The notes beneath the pieces were generated by a model. It was not told where the DNA came from. It was given only the letters and a program-made list of their open reading frames with translations, and did not search any database. A program made the translations under genes and the position numbers. A stretch of DNA of 43,130 bases from Escherichia phage Sciku: the sequence record MK931439.1. One strand, written 5' to 3'. This document shows, in pieces, positions 3,332 through 36,811 of this stretch. Numbering within the stretch: the stretch's first letter is position 1; every line of letters starts with the position of its first letter.

Positions 3332-3358
3332 AAGGCCCTGTTATGGGGCCTTAGTTTT
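3332..3358. terminator. bidirectional rho-independent terminator
   Basis: AAGGCCC-N7-GGGCCTT hairpin followed by TTTTAT, between convergent portal gene and antisense gene. Confidence 0.6.
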
Positions 3359-3878
3359 ATTTAAATCGTGCGGGTATTAGCACCATAAATGCTGAGTTTG
3401 AAAATGATATTTTGCAACCTCTGGTTTGATCCTGGAAATCGAAACGAGCAATTACATTTTTGTATGCCTTAGAAATCTTGTACGCGTCAGCTAAATACTG
3501 CATAGCGAATCCTATACTATCAACCGCACCTGGCTCGATGCGCGCCACGCGCCTCCAGTCAGGAAAGTTTCCGTCTACAACATCTACCGGAAGTGTACAT
3601 ATAAGAGAACGACTATCGTCATAGAAGGAAACACTGCCGTTGGTATGGTTCACCTCCGCGTAGTTAAATTTAGATGGTTCTCTACCTTTGATGTCTATGA
3701 GAATCCCCTTCTCAACGTTTGTCTTCACATTGTCACAGAACAATCTACGACCATCCGTAGACACTATCAATCCTTCCGGGTCTATGTAAAAAGCGTTCAA
3801 ATAGTAGCGCGCATCATTTTTAGCCCTGCAGATTTTCGCCCCTACATACGCAGGGAAAGTAATAACGGTAGTAATCAT
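3357..3878 (-). CDS. hypothetical protein (antisense moron)
   Basis: 173 aa from ATG at 3878 with AGGAGG RBS 6 nt upstream; opposite strand to all flanking structural genes; no recognisable motif. Confidence 0.55.
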   Translation of the reverse strand: MITTVITFPAYVGAKICRAKNDARYYLNAFYIDPEGLIVSTDGRRLFCDNVKTNVEKGILIDIKGREPSKFNYAEVNHTNGSVSFYDDSRSLICTLPVDVVDGNFPDWRRVARIEPGAVDSIGFAMQYLADAYKISKAYKNVIARFDFQDQTRGCKISFSNSAFMVLIPARFK

Positions 3879-3978: not shown

Positions 3979-5022
3979 ATGAGCTTACTAACATCATTAA
4001 TCAGCCACCAGATTTGGCTGCAACGCACCGCATCCGGTGAAGTGAAGGACCTCACACCATTCATTCAGGAGATGCGAGATGAAATCAAAAGGCAGGTGCT
4101 GTTGTTCGGCGACGACGGGCGGAGCACAGCGCGTCTGAATAAACTATTGCGCGACCTCGAGGAAGCACTTACCGGGCTAACCGGCGACTGGCAGACTAAG
4201 CTGACAGAAGACCTTAAGGAGCTTGCAGCGTATGAGGCTGAGTGGAATGTGAAGACACTCACGGCTAACGTTAATGCGGAATTTGTTACCCCGACCGCTG
4301 AACAGGTGTGGTCCGCCGCCGTGTTTCAACCACTGGCGCTAAGCGAAAAGCCCGTTGACTTCACGAAGCTTATGGAAGGCTGGGGTGAAACGGAAGTAGC
4401 TCGCCTCGTTACCGGCGTTAAGATGGGCTTTGTGCAGGGCCGGACAACACGACAGATTATCAAGAGCGTTGTTGGCAACGGTGGGCTATCGGATAAATCA
4501 GCCAACAACGCCGCCGTTGTAATCCGCACCGCTCTTTCACACGTATCTAACGAAGCCCGTAACGAGACTTATCGACAGAACAGTGACATCATCGAGAAAT
4601 ACGAGTGGGTATCCACGCTTGACAGTCGTACCAGCACAATCTGCAAGGCCAGAGACGGCATGACGTGGGGAATCGGTAAAGGCCCTATGCCCCCAGCCCA
4701 TCCGAATTGTCGAAGTACCACAGCACCTGTAATCAGTTCAGAGTTCTATTTCCTTGACGCGGGCGCAAAACGTGCGGCTAAGGGGGCAGATGGAGGTACA
4801 CAAGTTAGCGCGGATACCACTTATTATGAGTTTCTGAAACAGCAACCAGCGTGGTTTCAGGACCAGGCGTTAGGCCCGGTGCGCGGTAAGATTTTCCGCA
4901 ACAGCGGTATATCGCCGGAAGAGTTTCGCGTAATATCTGTAGATGGTTTCGGGAATCCGCTCACGCTTAAGCAGATGGCGGAACTCGATAAACGTGTTGC
5001 TGATTATCTGAAAGGGGAATAA
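3979..5022 (+). CDS. head morphogenesis / minor head protein
   Basis: ATG at 3979 with AGGAGGG RBS; position after portal typical of Mu F / SPP1 gp7-type proteins; family call is positional. Confidence 0.5.
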   Translation: MSLLTSLISHQIWLQRTASGEVKDLTPFIQEMRDEIKRQVLLFGDDGRSTARLNKLLRDLEEALTGLTGDWQTKLTEDLKELAAYEAEWNVKTLTANVNAEFVTPTAEQVWSAAVFQPLALSEKPVDFTKLMEGWGETEVARLVTGVKMGFVQGRTTRQIIKSVVGNGGLSDKSANNAAVVIRTALSHVSNEARNETYRQNSDIIEKYEWVSTLDSRTSTICKARDGMTWGIGKGPMPPAHPNCRSTTAPVISSEFYFLDAGAKRAAKGADGGTQVSADTTYYEFLKQQPAWFQDQALGPVRGKIFRNSGISPEEFRVISVDGFGNPLTLKQMAELDKRVADYLKGE

Positions 5023-24750: not shown

Positions 24751-24888
24751 CTACTCTTCGGATAACTTCTCCAGTACAAACGCCAGTTGCGCATTAGCGG
24801 CGTCTCTCTGTTGCCGTAGTCGTAGAACCTCTTCTTCGAGTTCCTCGATACGTTTTTGCAATGCCGGAATTGGGGCTATGATGTTCAT
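24751..24888 (-). CDS. small coiled-coil hypothetical protein
   Basis: 45 aa ORF whose ATG overlaps the helicase stop (ATGA); heptad-like IEELEEEVLRLRQQ. Confidence 0.3.
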   Translation of the reverse strand: MNIIAPIPALQKRIEELEEEVLRLRQQRDAANAQLAFVLEKLSEE

Positions 24889-27350
24889 TTCTTACCTCGT
24901 CTCTTCATGTAATTAAGCAATTCTTCCTGTACAGATTTCTTCTCGTCGGTGCGCGCGGCAACAACCTCATCCAGCGTGTCTTTAGCGACGATGTGATAGA
25001 GGAACACCGGGCGCTCGTGTCCAGCCTGTTTCTGACGAACAGGGCCTATGCGCTCGACAACCTGCAAATAGTGCTCGAGGTTCCATCCCTGACTTATAAA
25101 CGCCAGATGATGCCCTCCATCCTGTAAATTCAAACCATGGCCGGCTGACGCGGGATGAACACATAAGATTTCGATTTCACCACGGTTCCACGCTTCCATC
25201 TGCTTATTACCCTTAGCTCCTTTGGCAAACGCCTTAGCCTGCGGGAATCGCTTAAGTATGCGCTCCAGTTCGTGTTTAAACTGATAGGCCACCAGTAACG
25301 GCGCGCCCTGCAACTCCTCAACAATGGACTCCAGTGCGTCCAGTTTCGTGTCATGCACTTTCTCCCAGTCTTTCGTTGCTTCGCCATCTGGCCCTGATAC
25401 ATACACGGCACCGGACGCAATCTGGAGACACTTTGATGTCTTCGCTGCCGCGTTAGCGGCTTCAACTTCCCCGCTCTCGAGTTCCGCAAATAACTTCTCC
25501 TCCATATCGATGTACGCCTGACGCGCTTTCTTCGGCAGGTCTATTTCAACAGGAACGATAATCGGCGCTTCGCAACCGAACCACTCTGCAGCATCGATAG
25601 TGAGACTGATATCCTTCATCTTCTGATGAATCTCGGTATCCGCGCCCGGGCGAGCGTGATACTCACGCGCCATAGCCGATTTGCCTTTCTGTATCGAATT
25701 AAACCAGCGGTCGGTAAACGCCGTATACGAAGAACCAAGTCGCTCGCCTGCGTCTATAAACCAGTTCTGCCCCCACAAGTCTTTGAGGCCGTTTGGTGAC
25801 GGCGTACCGGTCAGGTTGATAAAACGCTTAACCTTACCAAACGCCACTTTACTAAGCGCCTTTGCTCGCTTGCTGCCACCAGAACGGCTGCGGAACGATT
25901 TAAGCTTCGTGCTCTCGTCGGCAACGATAACTGTGAAAGGCCAGTCGTCTTTGCCGTAGTAGTCAATCAGCCACTCGATAACTTCGTAGTTAGTGCACAC
26001 CACGTTAGCGTCGGACTCAAGCGCCGTGATGCGGCGCTTCTCCGAACCGGTCGCATCTACTACACGCAGGCACGGGAAACCCCAACGTGCCTGTTCCGCG
26101 GGCCACGTGCCAGACGCAACACGCAACGGGGCGAGGATTAACACGCGGTCGTCGTCATTAAGTTGCCCATTACGGAACAGGCGGTTGAGAACCCACAACG
26201 TTGAGCTTGTATTGTGCGTGACAGTGAAGTCCCCCAATAAAAACCTACTGTCACCGTCGATAGTGAAGCCGAAATAATCATCTACGCCGACCGGGGTTAT
26301 GGATTCTATACCAACGTTAAGCACGTTCTTATTAATATTACGCTTCGGTAAATTCTGGTGGCGTCCTCGCACGAAAGGTACCTCAGAAAAATCGCCAGAT
26401 ACCGACACACGGAAGTAGTCACCCCAAACATCAGTGTTTGCGCAACGCTTACGAGTTTTCTTCTTGTAAGCAGCAAAACCAAGAGAACGGCATAGATAGC
26501 AAAAATCATCAGCAAGTCGCTCGCTTACCGAAATCCAGTCAAAACCCGCTTTAGACAAATCGCAGTAACCATCACTATCCAGAAGCCCCGCCAGCAATTC
26601 TAACCGCTGTCGCCGGTCGCCGCATTTGTAACTATGCGGTATATGCTTATTGTTCAGGACACCCGCCGATTTCAGCGCGTGCGTAAACCCGTGCTTCTTA
26701 TGACCTGTGTTGCCGTAAGATATACTCCATGTAAGTCCTTCTTTTCGTATTTGCATCCCATTACGTGCTGCGTACGACTCAAGATAAGCCCTTATTTCCT
26801 TTTCGTTCTCTCCTGATGTTATGGCCCCCGACGACGAAGTACCGTCACCCAGCCATAACCCCATAAGGTACGGAGGCAATAAAGCCTCGTCCTGCTCTTT
26901 CCTTGTAAAATCGACAGGTACCCGCCAACCCTTAAGATACCCATTAGGTCCGGTTACATATTTCGGCAACTTAAGCCAGTCGCGGACGCTTATGTCGAAA
27001 ACGGTATTATCTGGCCATGAACCTTTTGCAATCCCTGTAGTAGTTCGCAGGGATAATATATGGCTTTCGTTGACCGTATACGACTCTCCTTTTCGCGGTT
27101 TAACCTCGTACATCATCTCCCGGCCTCTACCGAGAGACAGTACATTTCTAGGCGTTGAATCCGGCCCCATAAGCACGTCACCGACGATGACGTCTTCTAC
27201 TTTCTTGGTCGTACCGTCAAACATAATAACTTCCGTCCCGCGTTTCAGGCACTTGCCGCTGCCCATACTAGCCCAGATATTGCAACGTGGGTGCTGTAAC
27301 ATAAACGACGTCATTATTTTCTGGTATTCCCTGCGCCTAAATTTACTCAT
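24885..27350 (-). CDS. SNF2-family helicase precursor containing an intein
   Basis: motif I ASMGSGK|T interrupted after Lys33 by a 347-aa insert; C-terminal helicase region with GHGLNLQ; mature protein predicted 474 aa. Confidence 0.8.
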   Translation of the reverse strand: MSKFRRREYQKIMTSFMLQHPRCNIWASMGSGKCLKRGTEVIMFDGTTKKVEDVIVGDVLMGPDSTPRNVLSLGRGREMMYEVKPRKGESYTVNESHILSLRTTTGIAKGSWPDNTVFDISVRDWLKLPKYVTGPNGYLKGWRVPVDFTRKEQDEALLPPYLMGLWLGDGTSSSGAITSGENEKEIRAYLESYAARNGMQIRKEGLTWSISYGNTGHKKHGFTHALKSAGVLNNKHIPHSYKCGDRRQRLELLAGLLDSDGYCDLSKAGFDWISVSERLADDFCYLCRSLGFAAYKKKTRKRCANTDVWGDYFRVSVSGDFSEVPFVRGRHQNLPKRNINKNVLNVGIESITPVGVDDYFGFTIDGDSRFLLGDFTVTHNTSSTLWVLNRLFRNGQLNDDDRVLILAPLRVASGTWPAEQARWGFPCLRVVDATGSEKRRITALESDANVVCTNYEVIEWLIDYYGKDDWPFTVIVADESTKLKSFRSRSGGSKRAKALSKVAFGKVKRFINLTGTPSPNGLKDLWGQNWFIDAGERLGSSYTAFTDRWFNSIQKGKSAMAREYHARPGADTEIHQKMKDISLTIDAAEWFGCEAPIIVPVEIDLPKKARQAYIDMEEKLFAELESGEVEAANAAAKTSKCLQIASGAVYVSGPDGEATKDWEKVHDTKLDALESIVEELQGAPLLVAYQFKHELERILKRFPQAKAFAKGAKGNKQMEAWNRGEIEILCVHPASAGHGLNLQDGGHHLAFISQGWNLEHYLQVVERIGPVRQKQAGHERPVFLYHIVAKDTLDEVVAARTDEKKSVQEELLNYMKRRGKK
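26211..27251 (-). mobile_element. intein with LAGLIDADG homing-endonuclease domain
   Basis: begins with Cys (TGC at 27251-27249), ends His-Asn (26216-26211) before Thr +1; two LAGLIDADG motifs YLMGLWLGDGT and LLAGLLDSDGY; in frame, 1041 nt. Confidence 0.8.
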
Positions 27351-27568: not shown

Positions 27569-27856
27569 CTAACTATAATAGTTCGCTATTAGGTCGTCAA
27601 CCTGTTTAAACGAACCAACGACAAAAACATTTGCACCACGTTTACGCATCCGCTCGTGCTCTCGTAGCTGGTGGGGGTCCGGCTTCGTGTTTTCATCTTT
27701 CTTAACCTCGACGAACCAGATGACGCTGCCGGGGAGGATTACCAGCAGGTCAGGGGCGCCCACTCTATTTTCGTACGACAATTTGCGTACGAGGCCCCCC
27801 AGGGCCTCGAATCGGTCTTTTGCGTATTTCTGAACAACTCCTTCTTTAGTCGCCAT
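27569..27856 (-). CDS. VRR-NUC domain nuclease
   Basis: 95 aa with PD-(D/E)xK-like core GAPDLLVILPG...FVEVKK typical of VRR-NUC. Confidence 0.6.
   Translation of the reverse strand: MATKEGVVQKYAKDRFEALGGLVRKLSYENRVGAPDLLVILPGSVIWFVEVKKDENTKPDPHQLREHERMRKRGANVFVVGSFKQVDDLIANYYS
27572..27600 (-). promoter_or_regulatory. sigma70-like promoter with AATAG-N4-CTATT operator (type A)
   Basis: minus strand: -35 TTGACG (27600-27595), 17-nt spacer, -10 TATAGT (27577-27572); palindrome AATAGttcgCTATT 27577-27590. Confidence 0.5.
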
Positions 27857-28337
27857 GGTTACAGAAATCTCCGTGTAGTGATTCTCTCGCCGCGCAGACT
27901 ACTTTGTACGCTTCCTCCTTTGTCGAAAAAGCACCGAAATATATGCGCTTCCCGTTCACGGTTATCCTTGCCCTAAATTTACCTCTTTCAGGTGATACCC
28001 CCTTTAAACATGAGGTGTTGTCACGCCTTACCCTTGCGTTTCTGGTATTCTCCCACCTGGTCGCTAACCGCAGGTTGCAAATCCGATTATCCGCACGGTC
28101 GCCGTTTATATGGTCAACCTCCTCCGGCGGCATATCACCGTACACCCACCACCAAGCCAATCGGTGTGCCGGATAGTGGACGTTTCTGAACACAACTTTC
28201 ATATACCCAAGGTCAGTGTAGTTATTTATAGCTTTCCCCGGAACAGACCGCGGACCACTTCGCTTAACCCATTTGAATACCCCAGTATCAGGGTCGTACG
28301 ACAGGAAATCTTTTATATCGTCACTTGGTGCTTTCAT
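27846..28337 (-). CDS. HNH homing endonuclease with AP2-like DNA-binding domain
   Basis: HNH core HRLAWWWVYGDMPPEEVDHINGDRADNRICNLRLATRWEN; C-terminal AP2-like GVSPERGKFRARITVNGKRIYFGAFSTKEEA; ATG 28337 with GAGGGG RBS. Confidence 0.75.
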   Translation of the reverse strand: MKAPSDDIKDFLSYDPDTGVFKWVKRSGPRSVPGKAINNYTDLGYMKVVFRNVHYPAHRLAWWWVYGDMPPEEVDHINGDRADNRICNLRLATRWENTRNARVRRDNTSCLKGVSPERGKFRARITVNGKRIYFGAFSTKEEAYKVVCAARESLHGDFCNHGD

Positions 28338-28419
28338 AATACGCACCCCTCACGTTTCGTATGCTCAATCCCGCAGCGCGGGCAGATTCGGCAGTCTTCT
28401 TCGTATAACCAGTAAATTT

Positions 28420-34256: not shown

Positions 34257-34553
34257 CTATTCCAAATTCTTAATCGTGTGTTGCACGTTCAGGTACTGAA
34301 TCCACGCAAAAAGCCATACGCTTAACGGAAAACTAACCACAGCTGCCGTTCTGAAAACAATGTGGACGGTACACGCTACAATTTCCTTTACCGTCATATC
34401 CAGAACGTGGCGCAATTCTGCAACTTCCTCTAACGCTAGCTTGCAAGCAGGCCACCATTGGTGTGCTACACAAGAAACACATGTCAGGTACGACGGGCGG
34501 TATCCAGCCCTCACTGCTTTAAACGGGTTATCTATAAAATCGTAGATATTCAT
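34257..34553 (-). CDS. hypothetical protein
   Basis: 98 aa ORF with Cys-rich N-half and hydrophobic C-terminus; start overlaps primase stop. Confidence 0.4.
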   Translation of the reverse strand: MNIYDFIDNPFKAVRAGYRPSYLTCVSCVAHQWWPACKLALEEVAELRHVLDMTVKEIVACTVHIVFRTAAVVSFPLSVWLFAWIQYLNVQHTIKNLE

Positions 34554-36811
34554 TCCAAATCCTCTTCTGTCACTATCAGCATCTCATTCGGCTCGTATAT
34601 TGTCTTCGGAATCTTGTTATCGTTTATGCCCCACGGCAGCCGATATTGCTTAGGTATAGGCCTGTTGTTATTATCCAGCCCAGAGACGATAACCCCGGCC
34701 TCGTGCATCTCCTCCAGTTTCTTTCGAAGGTCGTTATTAGCGTTAATCGGTACACCATAACTATCTTCTTTCACCGCTTTGACGATAGCGGACATAGAAA
34801 ACCCTCGCTTGTCGTCGCCCTGCTCCTGCAATTTACCTAATGCGTAAATAACCGTAGCTTCTTTGGTACCCAGTTTCTTGAACTGGCCTACCTTTTCTTT
34901 AACGGCTTCCTTCTGTTCGTCGGTCATACCTTCTACTTTCTTCACGAAGACAGAGAAGGCGTTAAAGTTAACAAAGACATCGATGTGCGGATTTCCCGCG
35001 TCAAAATCTCGTACATCGTCACTGCTATACCCTTCCGGAAGCACCATGAAGTTGTGAGTTGGTTCTTTCTTTTCCGGCGGCTCCGCTATCTGAATCTTCT
35101 GTATTACGAATCCTCTGGCTTTCTGCCGTTCTCCGTTTCGGTTCTTTATGTGATACAGGTTTATCTCTAAGTTATTGTCGTTGTCTGGTTTATGCAGGAA
35201 CATCCCGTTATCGATGGAGTTGTGAAAGTCGCTCCCACCCTTCGGCATCATGCCGTTTTCAGACGGTACGGTTTCGTCGATGTTTTTAGTCGGGTGCACC
35301 ATAGCGCCTACCGCAGCGTTAAGCGTCGACGCTATTTCGTTAAGCGCCTGCGCCGCTTCTTTCATCGACCTGTTGTCGTTCTCGTCGAAGCCTGGTATGC
35401 AAGTTTGTAGGGTATCAAACGTAACCTTTACAATTTTCTCTTCACCGGCGACACGGCGCATCATTCTTACCGCCTGGCGGCGCCATGCTTCATCAAGTAA
35501 ATTACACCCATCGGCAACACAATCGATAATGTGCAAGCGGTCCAGGCTATCCCCGAGGGCAATCTGCAAAGACTTTTTATGTCGCTCGAACGACTGTGCG
35601 CCTTCACCGGCGAAAATGAACGCATGTCCTTCTGCAACCTCTGCCCCACCGAACGCATATCTTTTTTCGGCGGCAATAGCGGCGTCAATCGCCATACTAA
35701 ATGTCGACTTACCAGTGTGGGACTTTGCGCAAATGTAAAACGATTCGTTAGTCTGCATAAGGCCGTCTACGACGGAGTAAGCAGGTTCTTTTTCAACTTC
35801 CGGCTCGTCTTCGAGGTCTTCCAGAGTGCAAGTTACAGGCTCTTCATTCTCTGTGCGGTGTAATTCCTCAATCTCTTCGTCCGGTAAATCAGGCAGAGCC
35901 GCACGAATGCTGTTAATACTGATAGGTTGCTTGTCTACGTTAAGCTCGTCCGGAAGACCGCACATACGCAGAGCCAAATGTTGTCGGCGGTTAAGCTCGG
36001 TGCAAGCGCCGTTGTTTGTGTGCTGGCACACGAAGCGCACTTCTTTACCATCAAGCATAATGCTGGTAGAGCCTTTGCCGGTGTGCAGGTGTTCGTTAGG
36101 GCAAGGCACTTCGTACCCGCGACCGGAAGATAAAGCGTCAAGGCCAAGCTCCGCTTCGCAGAAATGCGCTATATCCGCGTTAAGCCCATGCTCATCGGCA
36201 GCAAGGGTCTTAGCTTCACGTTTACGCAACCCCATTTCTTCGGCTTTCTTGATGTACCGCTCGGCACGGATAACACGCCCTTCTGTAACCGTTATCTTCG
36301 ACTCTTTATGCGGCAGGTAGATAAGGCGGTTGCCATCTTCTGTGCAGTGGTCACGCAGCGCTTCGTCTATCTCTAACTCTGCACAAATGGCGCGTTGTAC
36401 CATCCACGCATCGTTAGAGTTAAACGGCGTGCGTGCAGGTACAAGAACGCGAAAGGCGTAATCCCCGTTTTTACACGCGTGCTGATGCGACGCCGTTGTG
36501 TGCAGAATGTTGAAGAACGGCGCGTTCTTGAATTTGCGCGTCAGGTCGCGGTACTGAGCGCGGTTGAGATGGTCAAAGTCGAACTTAACCACACTGTCTT
36601 CCAGAATCGCGTTCTTACGGCGACCGCCAACCGGCGCAATAGCTTTCTGCTTAATCTTGGCCGCGTCGTACTCTTCCTTAGTCCATGACGGGTCTACGGA
36701 CAGACGCTTCGATGTATCGCAGACATACTCTACAAACTGCTCCAGTGGCATTTCACGGGCTACCGGGTTTTTATCGAATGTGTTACGCAGCGTTGCAAAA
36801 ACAATATTCAT
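34550..36811 (-). CDS. DNA primase / helicase
   Basis: 753 aa; Cys/His cluster CPNEHLHTGKGSTSIMLDGKEVRFVCQH; Walker A AKSHTGKST in the central domain. Confidence 0.7.
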   Translation of the reverse strand: MNIVFATLRNTFDKNPVAREMPLEQFVEYVCDTSKRLSVDPSWTKEEYDAAKIKQKAIAPVGGRRKNAILEDSVVKFDFDHLNRAQYRDLTRKFKNAPFFNILHTTASHQHACKNGDYAFRVLVPARTPFNSNDAWMVQRAICAELEIDEALRDHCTEDGNRLIYLPHKESKITVTEGRVIRAERYIKKAEEMGLRKREAKTLAADEHGLNADIAHFCEAELGLDALSSGRGYEVPCPNEHLHTGKGSTSIMLDGKEVRFVCQHTNNGACTELNRRQHLALRMCGLPDELNVDKQPISINSIRAALPDLPDEEIEELHRTENEEPVTCTLEDLEDEPEVEKEPAYSVVDGLMQTNESFYICAKSHTGKSTFSMAIDAAIAAEKRYAFGGAEVAEGHAFIFAGEGAQSFERHKKSLQIALGDSLDRLHIIDCVADGCNLLDEAWRRQAVRMMRRVAGEEKIVKVTFDTLQTCIPGFDENDNRSMKEAAQALNEIASTLNAAVGAMVHPTKNIDETVPSENGMMPKGGSDFHNSIDNGMFLHKPDNDNNLEINLYHIKNRNGERQKARGFVIQKIQIAEPPEKKEPTHNFMVLPEGYSSDDVRDFDAGNPHIDVFVNFNAFSVFVKKVEGMTDEQKEAVKEKVGQFKKLGTKEATVIYALGKLQEQGDDKRGFSMSAIVKAVKEDSYGVPINANNDLRKKLEEMHEAGVIVSGLDNNNRPIPKQYRLPWGINDNKIPKTIYEPNEMLIVTEEDLE

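Follow-up and report, generated by a model that had tools for sequence, protein, structure and literature searches.

An intein with two LAGLIDADG motifs in the P-loop of an SNF2-like helicase of Guernseyvirinae phages

Introduction

In the genome of Escherichia phage Sciku (MK931439.1; a stretch of 43,130 nucleotides, here called the window), the Walker A loop of a helicase is interrupted in frame by 347 codons. What this insert is, where exactly it begins and ends, and how it came to occupy an ATP-binding loop are the questions raised by the locus. A sequence-only reading of the window had proposed an intein with a LAGLIDADG homing endonuclease, splitting motif I of the helicase. The helicase region is 100% identical to that of Escherichia phage Shashou (MK931440.1), with matching coordinates, and we refer to Shashou below. 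Shashou, a wastewater phage obtained by isolation on E. coli, belongs to Kagunavirus (Guernseyvirinae).

The intein has been named before. In GenBank, CPT_Shashou_037 is an 'intein-containing helicase' whose helicase and intein parts each have their own mat_peptide feature, and the genome announcement states that 'The helicase … in Shashou contains an intein' (PMC6776780). The finding is thus correct and already known, and there is nothing unusual about the element within its class, which is well known. The Salmonella phages Shelanagig, 5sent1, and fmb-p1 and several Jerseyvirus records carry the same 'intein-containing helicase' annotation. InBase lists helicase inteins of SETP3, SETP5, and SETP12. 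What we add to the record are two annotation corrections, to the helicase start codon and to the C-terminal intein boundary. By-products of the analysis are numbers that make the intein, which Jerseyvirus and Kagunavirus share, much more recent than its host gene, and the finding that intein relatives occupy this Walker A position in 11 or more families of P-loop NTPases.

Results

Organization of the locus

The precursor, an intein-containing SNF2-like helicase of 821 residues, is encoded on the minus strand at 24885..27350, as defined by the open reading frame listing and the starts of its orthologues. It reads …NIWASMGSGK^C…HN^TSSTLWVLN, where carets mark the junctions, and the flanks of the insert in the precursor are …HPRCNIWASMGSGK ^ C…HN ^ TSSTLWVLNRLF…. 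Three segments follow one another on this strand. The N-extein (27252..27350; 33 residues, from the reading frame and the orthologue alignment) ends in WASMGSGK, the first part of Walker A/SNF2 motif I. The intein (26211..27251) extends over 347 residues from Cys1 to His346-Asn347, a delimitation based on translation, Pfam, the match to PI-SceI, alignment, and a structural model. The C-extein (24885..26210; 441 residues plus stop) carries what remains of the SNF2-like ATPase core together with a putative Helicase_C lobe, as seen by Pfam and alignment. The N-extein is kept across genera as a protein, its nucleotides being merely 74–92% identical.

The strand of the insert, which had not been given, is the minus strand. 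Here, 26211..27251 forms 347 open codons, with CLKRGTEV first and FTVTHN last, and the plus strand of the same interval contains many stop codons. The minus-strand translation bears out the description of a 347-residue insert that follows ASMGSGK, begins with Cys, ends with His-Asn, and is succeeded by Thr-Ser-Ser.

Intein-free orthologues define the insertion point

We compared the helicase genes of five relatives. The protein has 474 residues in Snoke and fFiEco03 (Kagunavirus) and in LPSE1 (Jerseyvirus), and 821 residues in VIPECOTPH05A and Shelanagig. In the alignment, all three short orthologues show one clean gap of 347 residues at GxGK^(T/S), which makes the insertion point exact. The loops of the empty alleles read GAGK^SSAT, GGGK^TSST, or GSGK^SGST, and that of the occupied alleles is GSGK^[intein]^TSST. 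An insertion into the helicase P-loop is confirmed by this comparison. We also looked for homologues carrying a collinear conserved domain in place of an intein, and in none of them does the segment occur without the splice-junction residues.

When the Shashou helicase is spliced in silico, a protein of 474 residues with the loop MGSGKTSS is obtained. Excision had been predicted to restore GSGKTSS, and the spliced protein does have a contiguous P-loop, which is spanned by its match to the Pfam family SNF2-rel_dom. The E-value of this match improves from 2.6e-9 with the intein to 1.1e-12 after splicing (48.2 bits, cut-off 24.9; the match now begins at residue 28). The spliced helicase also matches phrog_62, 'DNA helicase', at 4e-199, and scores 20.3 bits with Helicase_C, for which the cut-off is 23.5.

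The boundaries 26211–27251 are exact and lie nearer the truth than those of the GenBank mat_peptide. The latter (26208..27251, 'residues 6-353') wrongly takes in the Thr+1 codon (ACA, 26208..26210, minus strand), which the alignment identifies as the first C-extein residue, at once the Walker A Thr and the predicted +1 nucleophile. The intein ends at Asn347 (26211), and the Thr remains in the helicase. The GenBank coding sequence starts at 27266, the Met of MGSGK, which is 28 codons too late. The true start is at 27350, where the ATG overlaps the stop codon of the upstream gene (ATGA). All orthologues begin 28 codons upstream of the annotated start, with MSKF(Q/R)RREYQK…. The 28 residues lost, among them a Q-motif-like REYQ, are kept from genus to genus although synonymous change is saturated.

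The insert is an intein of PI-SceI type

Profile searches, structure prediction, and conservation together indicate that the insert is almost certainly a class-1 intein of the PI-SceI type with an embedded double-LAGLIDADG homing endonuclease. Pfam recognizes Hom_end_hint at the N-terminus of the intein (E=2.4e-22; 80.5 bits, cut-off 32.1) and LAGLIDADG_3 at intein residues 215–272 (E=8.7e-8; 32.8 bits, cut-off 22.5), and the score for Hom_end, 21.0 bits, falls slightly below its cut-off of 21.1. Among solved structures, the best sequence match is PI-SceI (E=3.3e-16), followed by Prp8 inteins. The HMMER alignment to PI-SceI (1dfa) covers both intein ends, namely residues 1–53 and 127–347. The Hom_end_hint, LAGLIDADG_3, and PI-SceI matches are all much too strong to be due to chance.

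An AlphaFold model of the intein, built with 42 homologues, has a mean pLDDT of 92.6 and a pTM of 0.92. Its top match in Foldseek is again PI-SceI (E=1.9e-23, TM 0.80), and further matches are TliVMA, PI-PfuI, the Prp8 mini-inteins, and the two-motif endonuclease I-DmoI. The gp41-1 and DnaB inteins are matched as well, and for the endonuclease domain the I-DmoI matches have an E of about 1e-5. Hom_end_hint and the model both indicate a Hint fold in the intein. Pfam, the PI-SceI alignment, the model, and Foldseek thus agree with the earlier proposal of a full-size intein with two LAGLIDADG motifs.

The residues expected for splicing and DNA cleavage are found in order along the minus strand. 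The Cys1 codon (TGC, 27249..27251) encodes the predicted N-terminal splice nucleophile of block A. Block B is N61-E-S-H64 (27060..27071), the NxxH form of TxxH that also occurs in PI-SceI. The first LAGLIDADG motif, YLMGLWLGDG (26841..26870; LMGLWLGDGT at residues 129–138), places Asp136 on Asp218 of PI-SceI in the HMMER alignment to 1dfa, and the second, LLAGLLDSDG (26568..26597; LLAGLLDSDGY at residues 219–229), lies within the LAGLIDADG_3 match and places Asp227 on Asp326. Asp218 and Asp326 are the two catalytic aspartates of PI-SceI. The C-terminal splice junction of block G is formed by His346-Asn347 (CAC AAT, 26211..26216). In the 42 aligned homologues C1, H64, D136, D227, and N347 are invariant, with conservation of at least 90% at N61 and H346. 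HN stands at the C-terminal end of 40 of 41 homologues, and the +1 residue is T or S in all 41.

A group I intron with a LAGLIDADG reading frame was considered and rejected: the reading frame runs on from the N-extein through the insert into the C-extein, and Hint blocks stand at either end of the insert. No second intein was found in the window's terminase, portal, capsid morphogenesis protein, DNA polymerase, exonuclease, or RepA-like helicase.

Comparison with known inteins

The intein of S. cerevisiae VMA1, PI-SceI (PDB 1VDE, 1LWS, 1EF0), is the best match of the Shashou intein in both sequence and structure, with about 20–23% identity in the structure alignment. The two share Cys1, the NxxH form of block B, the C-terminal His-Asn, two LAGLIDADG motifs with their catalytic Asp pair, and an endonuclease domain lodged within the Hint domain. 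Both hosts are P-loop ATPases, subunit A of the V-ATPase for PI-SceI and a phage SNF2 helicase for Shashou. They differ in the +1 residue, Thr in Shashou and Cys in PI-SceI, and in length, 347 against 454 residues. About 80 residues of this difference fall between block B and the first LAGLIDADG motif (53–127 in the Shashou intein, 53–209 in PI-SceI), the interval that holds the extra DNA-recognition region of PI-SceI. With this shorter interval the DNA-recognition region is reduced, and target recognition may differ.

Within the Guernseyvirinae, the allele of the Salmonella phages Shelanagig, 5sent1, and fmb-p1 and of SETP-type Jerseyvirus phages has the same insertion point and the same length of 347 residues, is 93–99% identical to the Shashou intein in nucleotides, and shows no biological difference from it. 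One published phylogeny places a SETP3 intein near Prp8 inteins. For the Jerseyvirus/SETP3 helicase intein, the literature that we searched contained genome announcements and this one phylogeny, and no splicing or cleavage data.

A search of a protein database with the intein returned 1057 matches, the best at about 50% identity; the near-identical Guernseyvirinae proteins were absent from these results. Precomputed domain assignments place the matches in hosts with ResIII, DEAD, SNF2, UvrD, DnaB_C, PhoH, AAA, AAA_24, and AAA_33 domains, as well as in thymidine kinases, thymidylate (dTMP) kinases, and ABC transporter ATPases. Among 41 aligned metagenomic homologues (41–51% identity), the insertion site is GK^C…HN^(T/S) in 32 and SK^C… in one, and in the other eight the insertion occurs three residues earlier, at GKPG^C…HN^TGK(S/T)T. 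An intein placed after the invariant Lys and ahead of the nucleophilic Thr is what Kelley et al. (2016, PMC5050341) describe as the 'classic P-loop intein insertion'. Inteins of this kind (mycobacteriophage TerL1-a, DnaB-b, MCM-a, RFC-a) occupy the same position in the motif as that of Shashou; they are non-allelic insertions, in genes other than its helicase. Novikova et al. (2016, PMC4760082) list 15 inteins for HepA/SNF2 helicases of bacteria and discuss the clustering of inteins in P-loops.

The intein is younger than its host gene

Close relatives were surveyed by megablast of the phage nucleotide collection. Helicase DNA is present in 442–450 phage records and the intein in 175, of which 169 are Salmonella phages and three are Escherichia phages. 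Compared with Shelanagig (Jerseyvirus), nucleotide identity is 95.2% in the intein, 84.6% in the C-extein, and 75.8% in the N-extein, and the corresponding values for VIPECOTPH05A are 99.4%, 92.4%, and 77.8%. The difference between intein and C-extein is significant in both comparisons (Fisher p=1.5e-17 and 1.6e-19, respectively). Against Shelanagig, Nei-Gojobori estimates put dS at 0.20 in the intein and at 0.95 in the C-extein; against VIPECOTPH05A, the two values are 0.025 and 0.39. Constraint at the nucleotide level could contribute to the low divergence of the intein, although it is hard to square with a dS that is 5- to 15-fold lower.

The intein has a dN/dS of 0.05 (0.053 for the endonuclease domain alone), and the exteins, at about 0.03–0.05, are under strong purifying selection. 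A young dS, purifying selection, and a patchy distribution form the signature of a functional homing element that spreads horizontally. The data fit a recent horizontal spread of a constrained intein, and the allele is common to both sides of the Jerseyvirus/Kagunavirus boundary.

Discussion

By analogy with the intein and LAGLIDADG families, we infer that the element splices, that the unspliced helicase is inactive, and that the endonuclease cleaves empty alleles and thereby homes. Translation would give the 821-residue precursor, presumably inactive because its ATP-binding loop is split. Splicing would start with an N-S acyl shift at Cys1, after which Thr+1 would attack the thioester; cyclization of Asn347, aided by His346, and an O-N shift would complete the reaction. 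The predicted products are a helicase of 474 residues, in which the GSGKTSS loop would be intact, and the 347-residue intein in free form. One indirect pointer to autocatalytic excision is that a phage isolated on E. coli can be assumed to be viable, and another is the strong purifying selection on the exteins. The free intein, or its endonuclease domain, could then cut intein-less helicase alleles of related co-infecting phages, and repair from the intein-bearing copy would spread the element.

Several other explanations of the insert bear on this proposal. We give practically no credence to a lineage-specific accessory domain that stays in the mature helicase: the segment is precisely missing from orthologues of the same and of the sister genus, which have a contiguous GxGK(T/S) loop, it breaks the Walker A loop for as long as it is in place, and it contains all intein blocks together with the predicted Hint fold. 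More thought is due to an intein kept as a post-translational regulator, whose conditional splicing (e.g. in response to redox state or temperature) would time helicase activity during infection. The insertion would inactivate the ATP site until splicing, and selective retention of P-loop inteins has been suggested (Novikova et al. 2016, PMC4760082). We nevertheless consider such a role very improbable here, since over half of the close relatives are without the intein, its distribution and young dS suit a selfish element, and no sensor is indicated in the sequence.

An intein that splices normally but carries a dead endonuclease, and is inherited vertically as an immobile passenger, is somewhat easier to entertain, if still unlikely. 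The DNA-recognition region is shorter than that of PI-SceI, and there is no obvious naive target. The healed Shashou site would read …GGCAGCGGCAAG^ACAAGCTCAACG… (AATATCTGGGCTAGTATGGGCAGCGGCAAG^ACAAGCTCAACGTTGTGGGTTCTCAACCGC as a synthetic site). When the healed 60-nt junction is compared with the phage collection, the closest intein-less allele is 86.4% identical over 59 nt, or 88.6% over 44 nt. No susceptible allele emerged from this comparison, and the surviving empty sites may be resistant variants or simply diverged. Against a dead enzyme stand the invariance of both catalytic Asp residues, the low dN/dS of the endonuclease domain, an intein dS 5 to 15 times below that of the flanking gene, and intein copies that are 99.4% or 95% identical where the exteins are 92% or 85% identical. 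The low dS and the near-identical copies point to recent horizontal movement, which would require an active enzyme or equivalent recombination.

Returning to a mobile intein, a more specific history can be put forward tentatively, and we rate it as a possibility with the odds against it. The Shashou intein may be a recent cross-genus immigrant, having homed from a Salmonella Jerseyvirus into an E. coli Kagunavirus, and may be part of a clade in which the endonuclease accepts Walker-A-coding DNA readily enough to jump from one P-loop NTPase gene to an unrelated one. That the intein passed from Salmonella phages to E. coli phages, and not the other way, is suggested only by prevalence. If this history holds, these phages would be a tractable system for both allelic and ectopic intein invasion. 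Guernseyvirinae can be grown with ease, and the intein is missing from about half of them; they could therefore suit experiments on intein homing in phage co-infections.

The sequence-only reading had also placed the insert in a conserved catalytic site of a replication protein. The P-loop site stands, and the replicative role probably does not: a RepA/DnaB-like helicase is encoded by a separate gene (34550..36811), which argues that the intein host is probably an SNF2-like accessory helicase of the recombination type.

The description of the intein endonuclease as a second selfish enzyme, alongside an HNH gene, is borne out by a free-standing HNH endonuclease gene (HNH_3 and AP2-like; Pfam HNH_3, 5.3e-15) that lies nearby, outside the intein, on the minus strand at 27846..28346. 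Full-length copies of this gene are found in Shashou and ZCEC5 only.

Selfish endonucleases at the 5′ end of the helicase gene

The 5′ end of the helicase gene appears to be a hotspot for selfish endonucleases. Many phages of the genera Kagunavirus and Jerseyvirus have an HNH gene unlike that of Shashou immediately before the helicase start, roughly 100 nt away from the site where the intein is inserted. This second, different endonuclease gene, exemplified by fFiEco03 (2701..3198 of L002, adjoining the helicase start), is I-HmuI-like and has 40% identity to the Shashou HNH. According to their annotation, some phages (TUMS_E4, TUMS_E6, and TUMS_E19) combine an HNH or homing endonuclease with a neighboring intein-containing helicase. 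Furthermore, the 99-nt N-extein is a mosaic, with nucleotide identities of 74–92% and groupings that depart from genus.

A remnant of the intein is observed in Salmonella phage JD01 (NC_073189.1, about 2990..3200 of L007). The N-extein, with its P-loop, has been deleted, along with all of the intein except its final ~44 codons, which are joined in a different reading frame to the initial ~25 codons of the HNH gene that lies upstream. This points either to a helicase ATPase that JD01 can do without or to an assembly error in the record.

The window itself carries a free-standing gene for an endonuclease with HNH_3 and AP2-like domains (27846..28346, minus strand), flanked by a VRR-NUC gene and two tiny ORFs. 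Among phage records, full-length copies of this gene are found only in Shashou and ZCEC5, with 97% identity; this restricted occurrence suggests a mobile homing-endonuclease gene.

Boundaries of the helicase and its intein

The GenBank start of the helicase CDS, at 27266, differs from the starts of its orthologues and drops 28 conserved N-terminal residues (MSKFRRREYQKIMTSFMLQHPRCNIWAS) encoded at the 5′ end of the gene (N-extein, 27252..27350, minus strand). In the orthologues, the start codon corresponds to the ATG at 27350, which shares bases with the stop codon of the upstream gene (ATGA). In LPSE1, the annotated helicase (1341 nt, 1151..2491 of L006) is likewise 28 codons short of the 474-aa ORF that begins at 1067.

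At the other end of the intein, the GenBank mat_peptide (26208..27251) includes the Thr+1 codon (26208..26210, minus strand). Taken as is, this boundary would yield a mature helicase reading GSGK-SSTLW, without the Walker A threonine.

An independent intein site in the capsid morphogenesis gene

A large intein has been reported in the capsid morphogenesis gene of Snoke and several Jerseyviruses (PMC6776784, PMC8425127). The helicase of Snoke, a sister phage, has no intein, and Shashou shows the reverse arrangement, with an intein-free capsid morphogenesis (Mu F-like) gene (3979..5022, plus strand). The two intein sites are therefore filled independently of each other.

The gene at 3357..3878 (minus strand) carries the annotation DNA polymerase III sliding clamp (beta-clamp-like). 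It lies on the opposite strand between the portal and capsid morphogenesis genes, an odd place for a replication gene.
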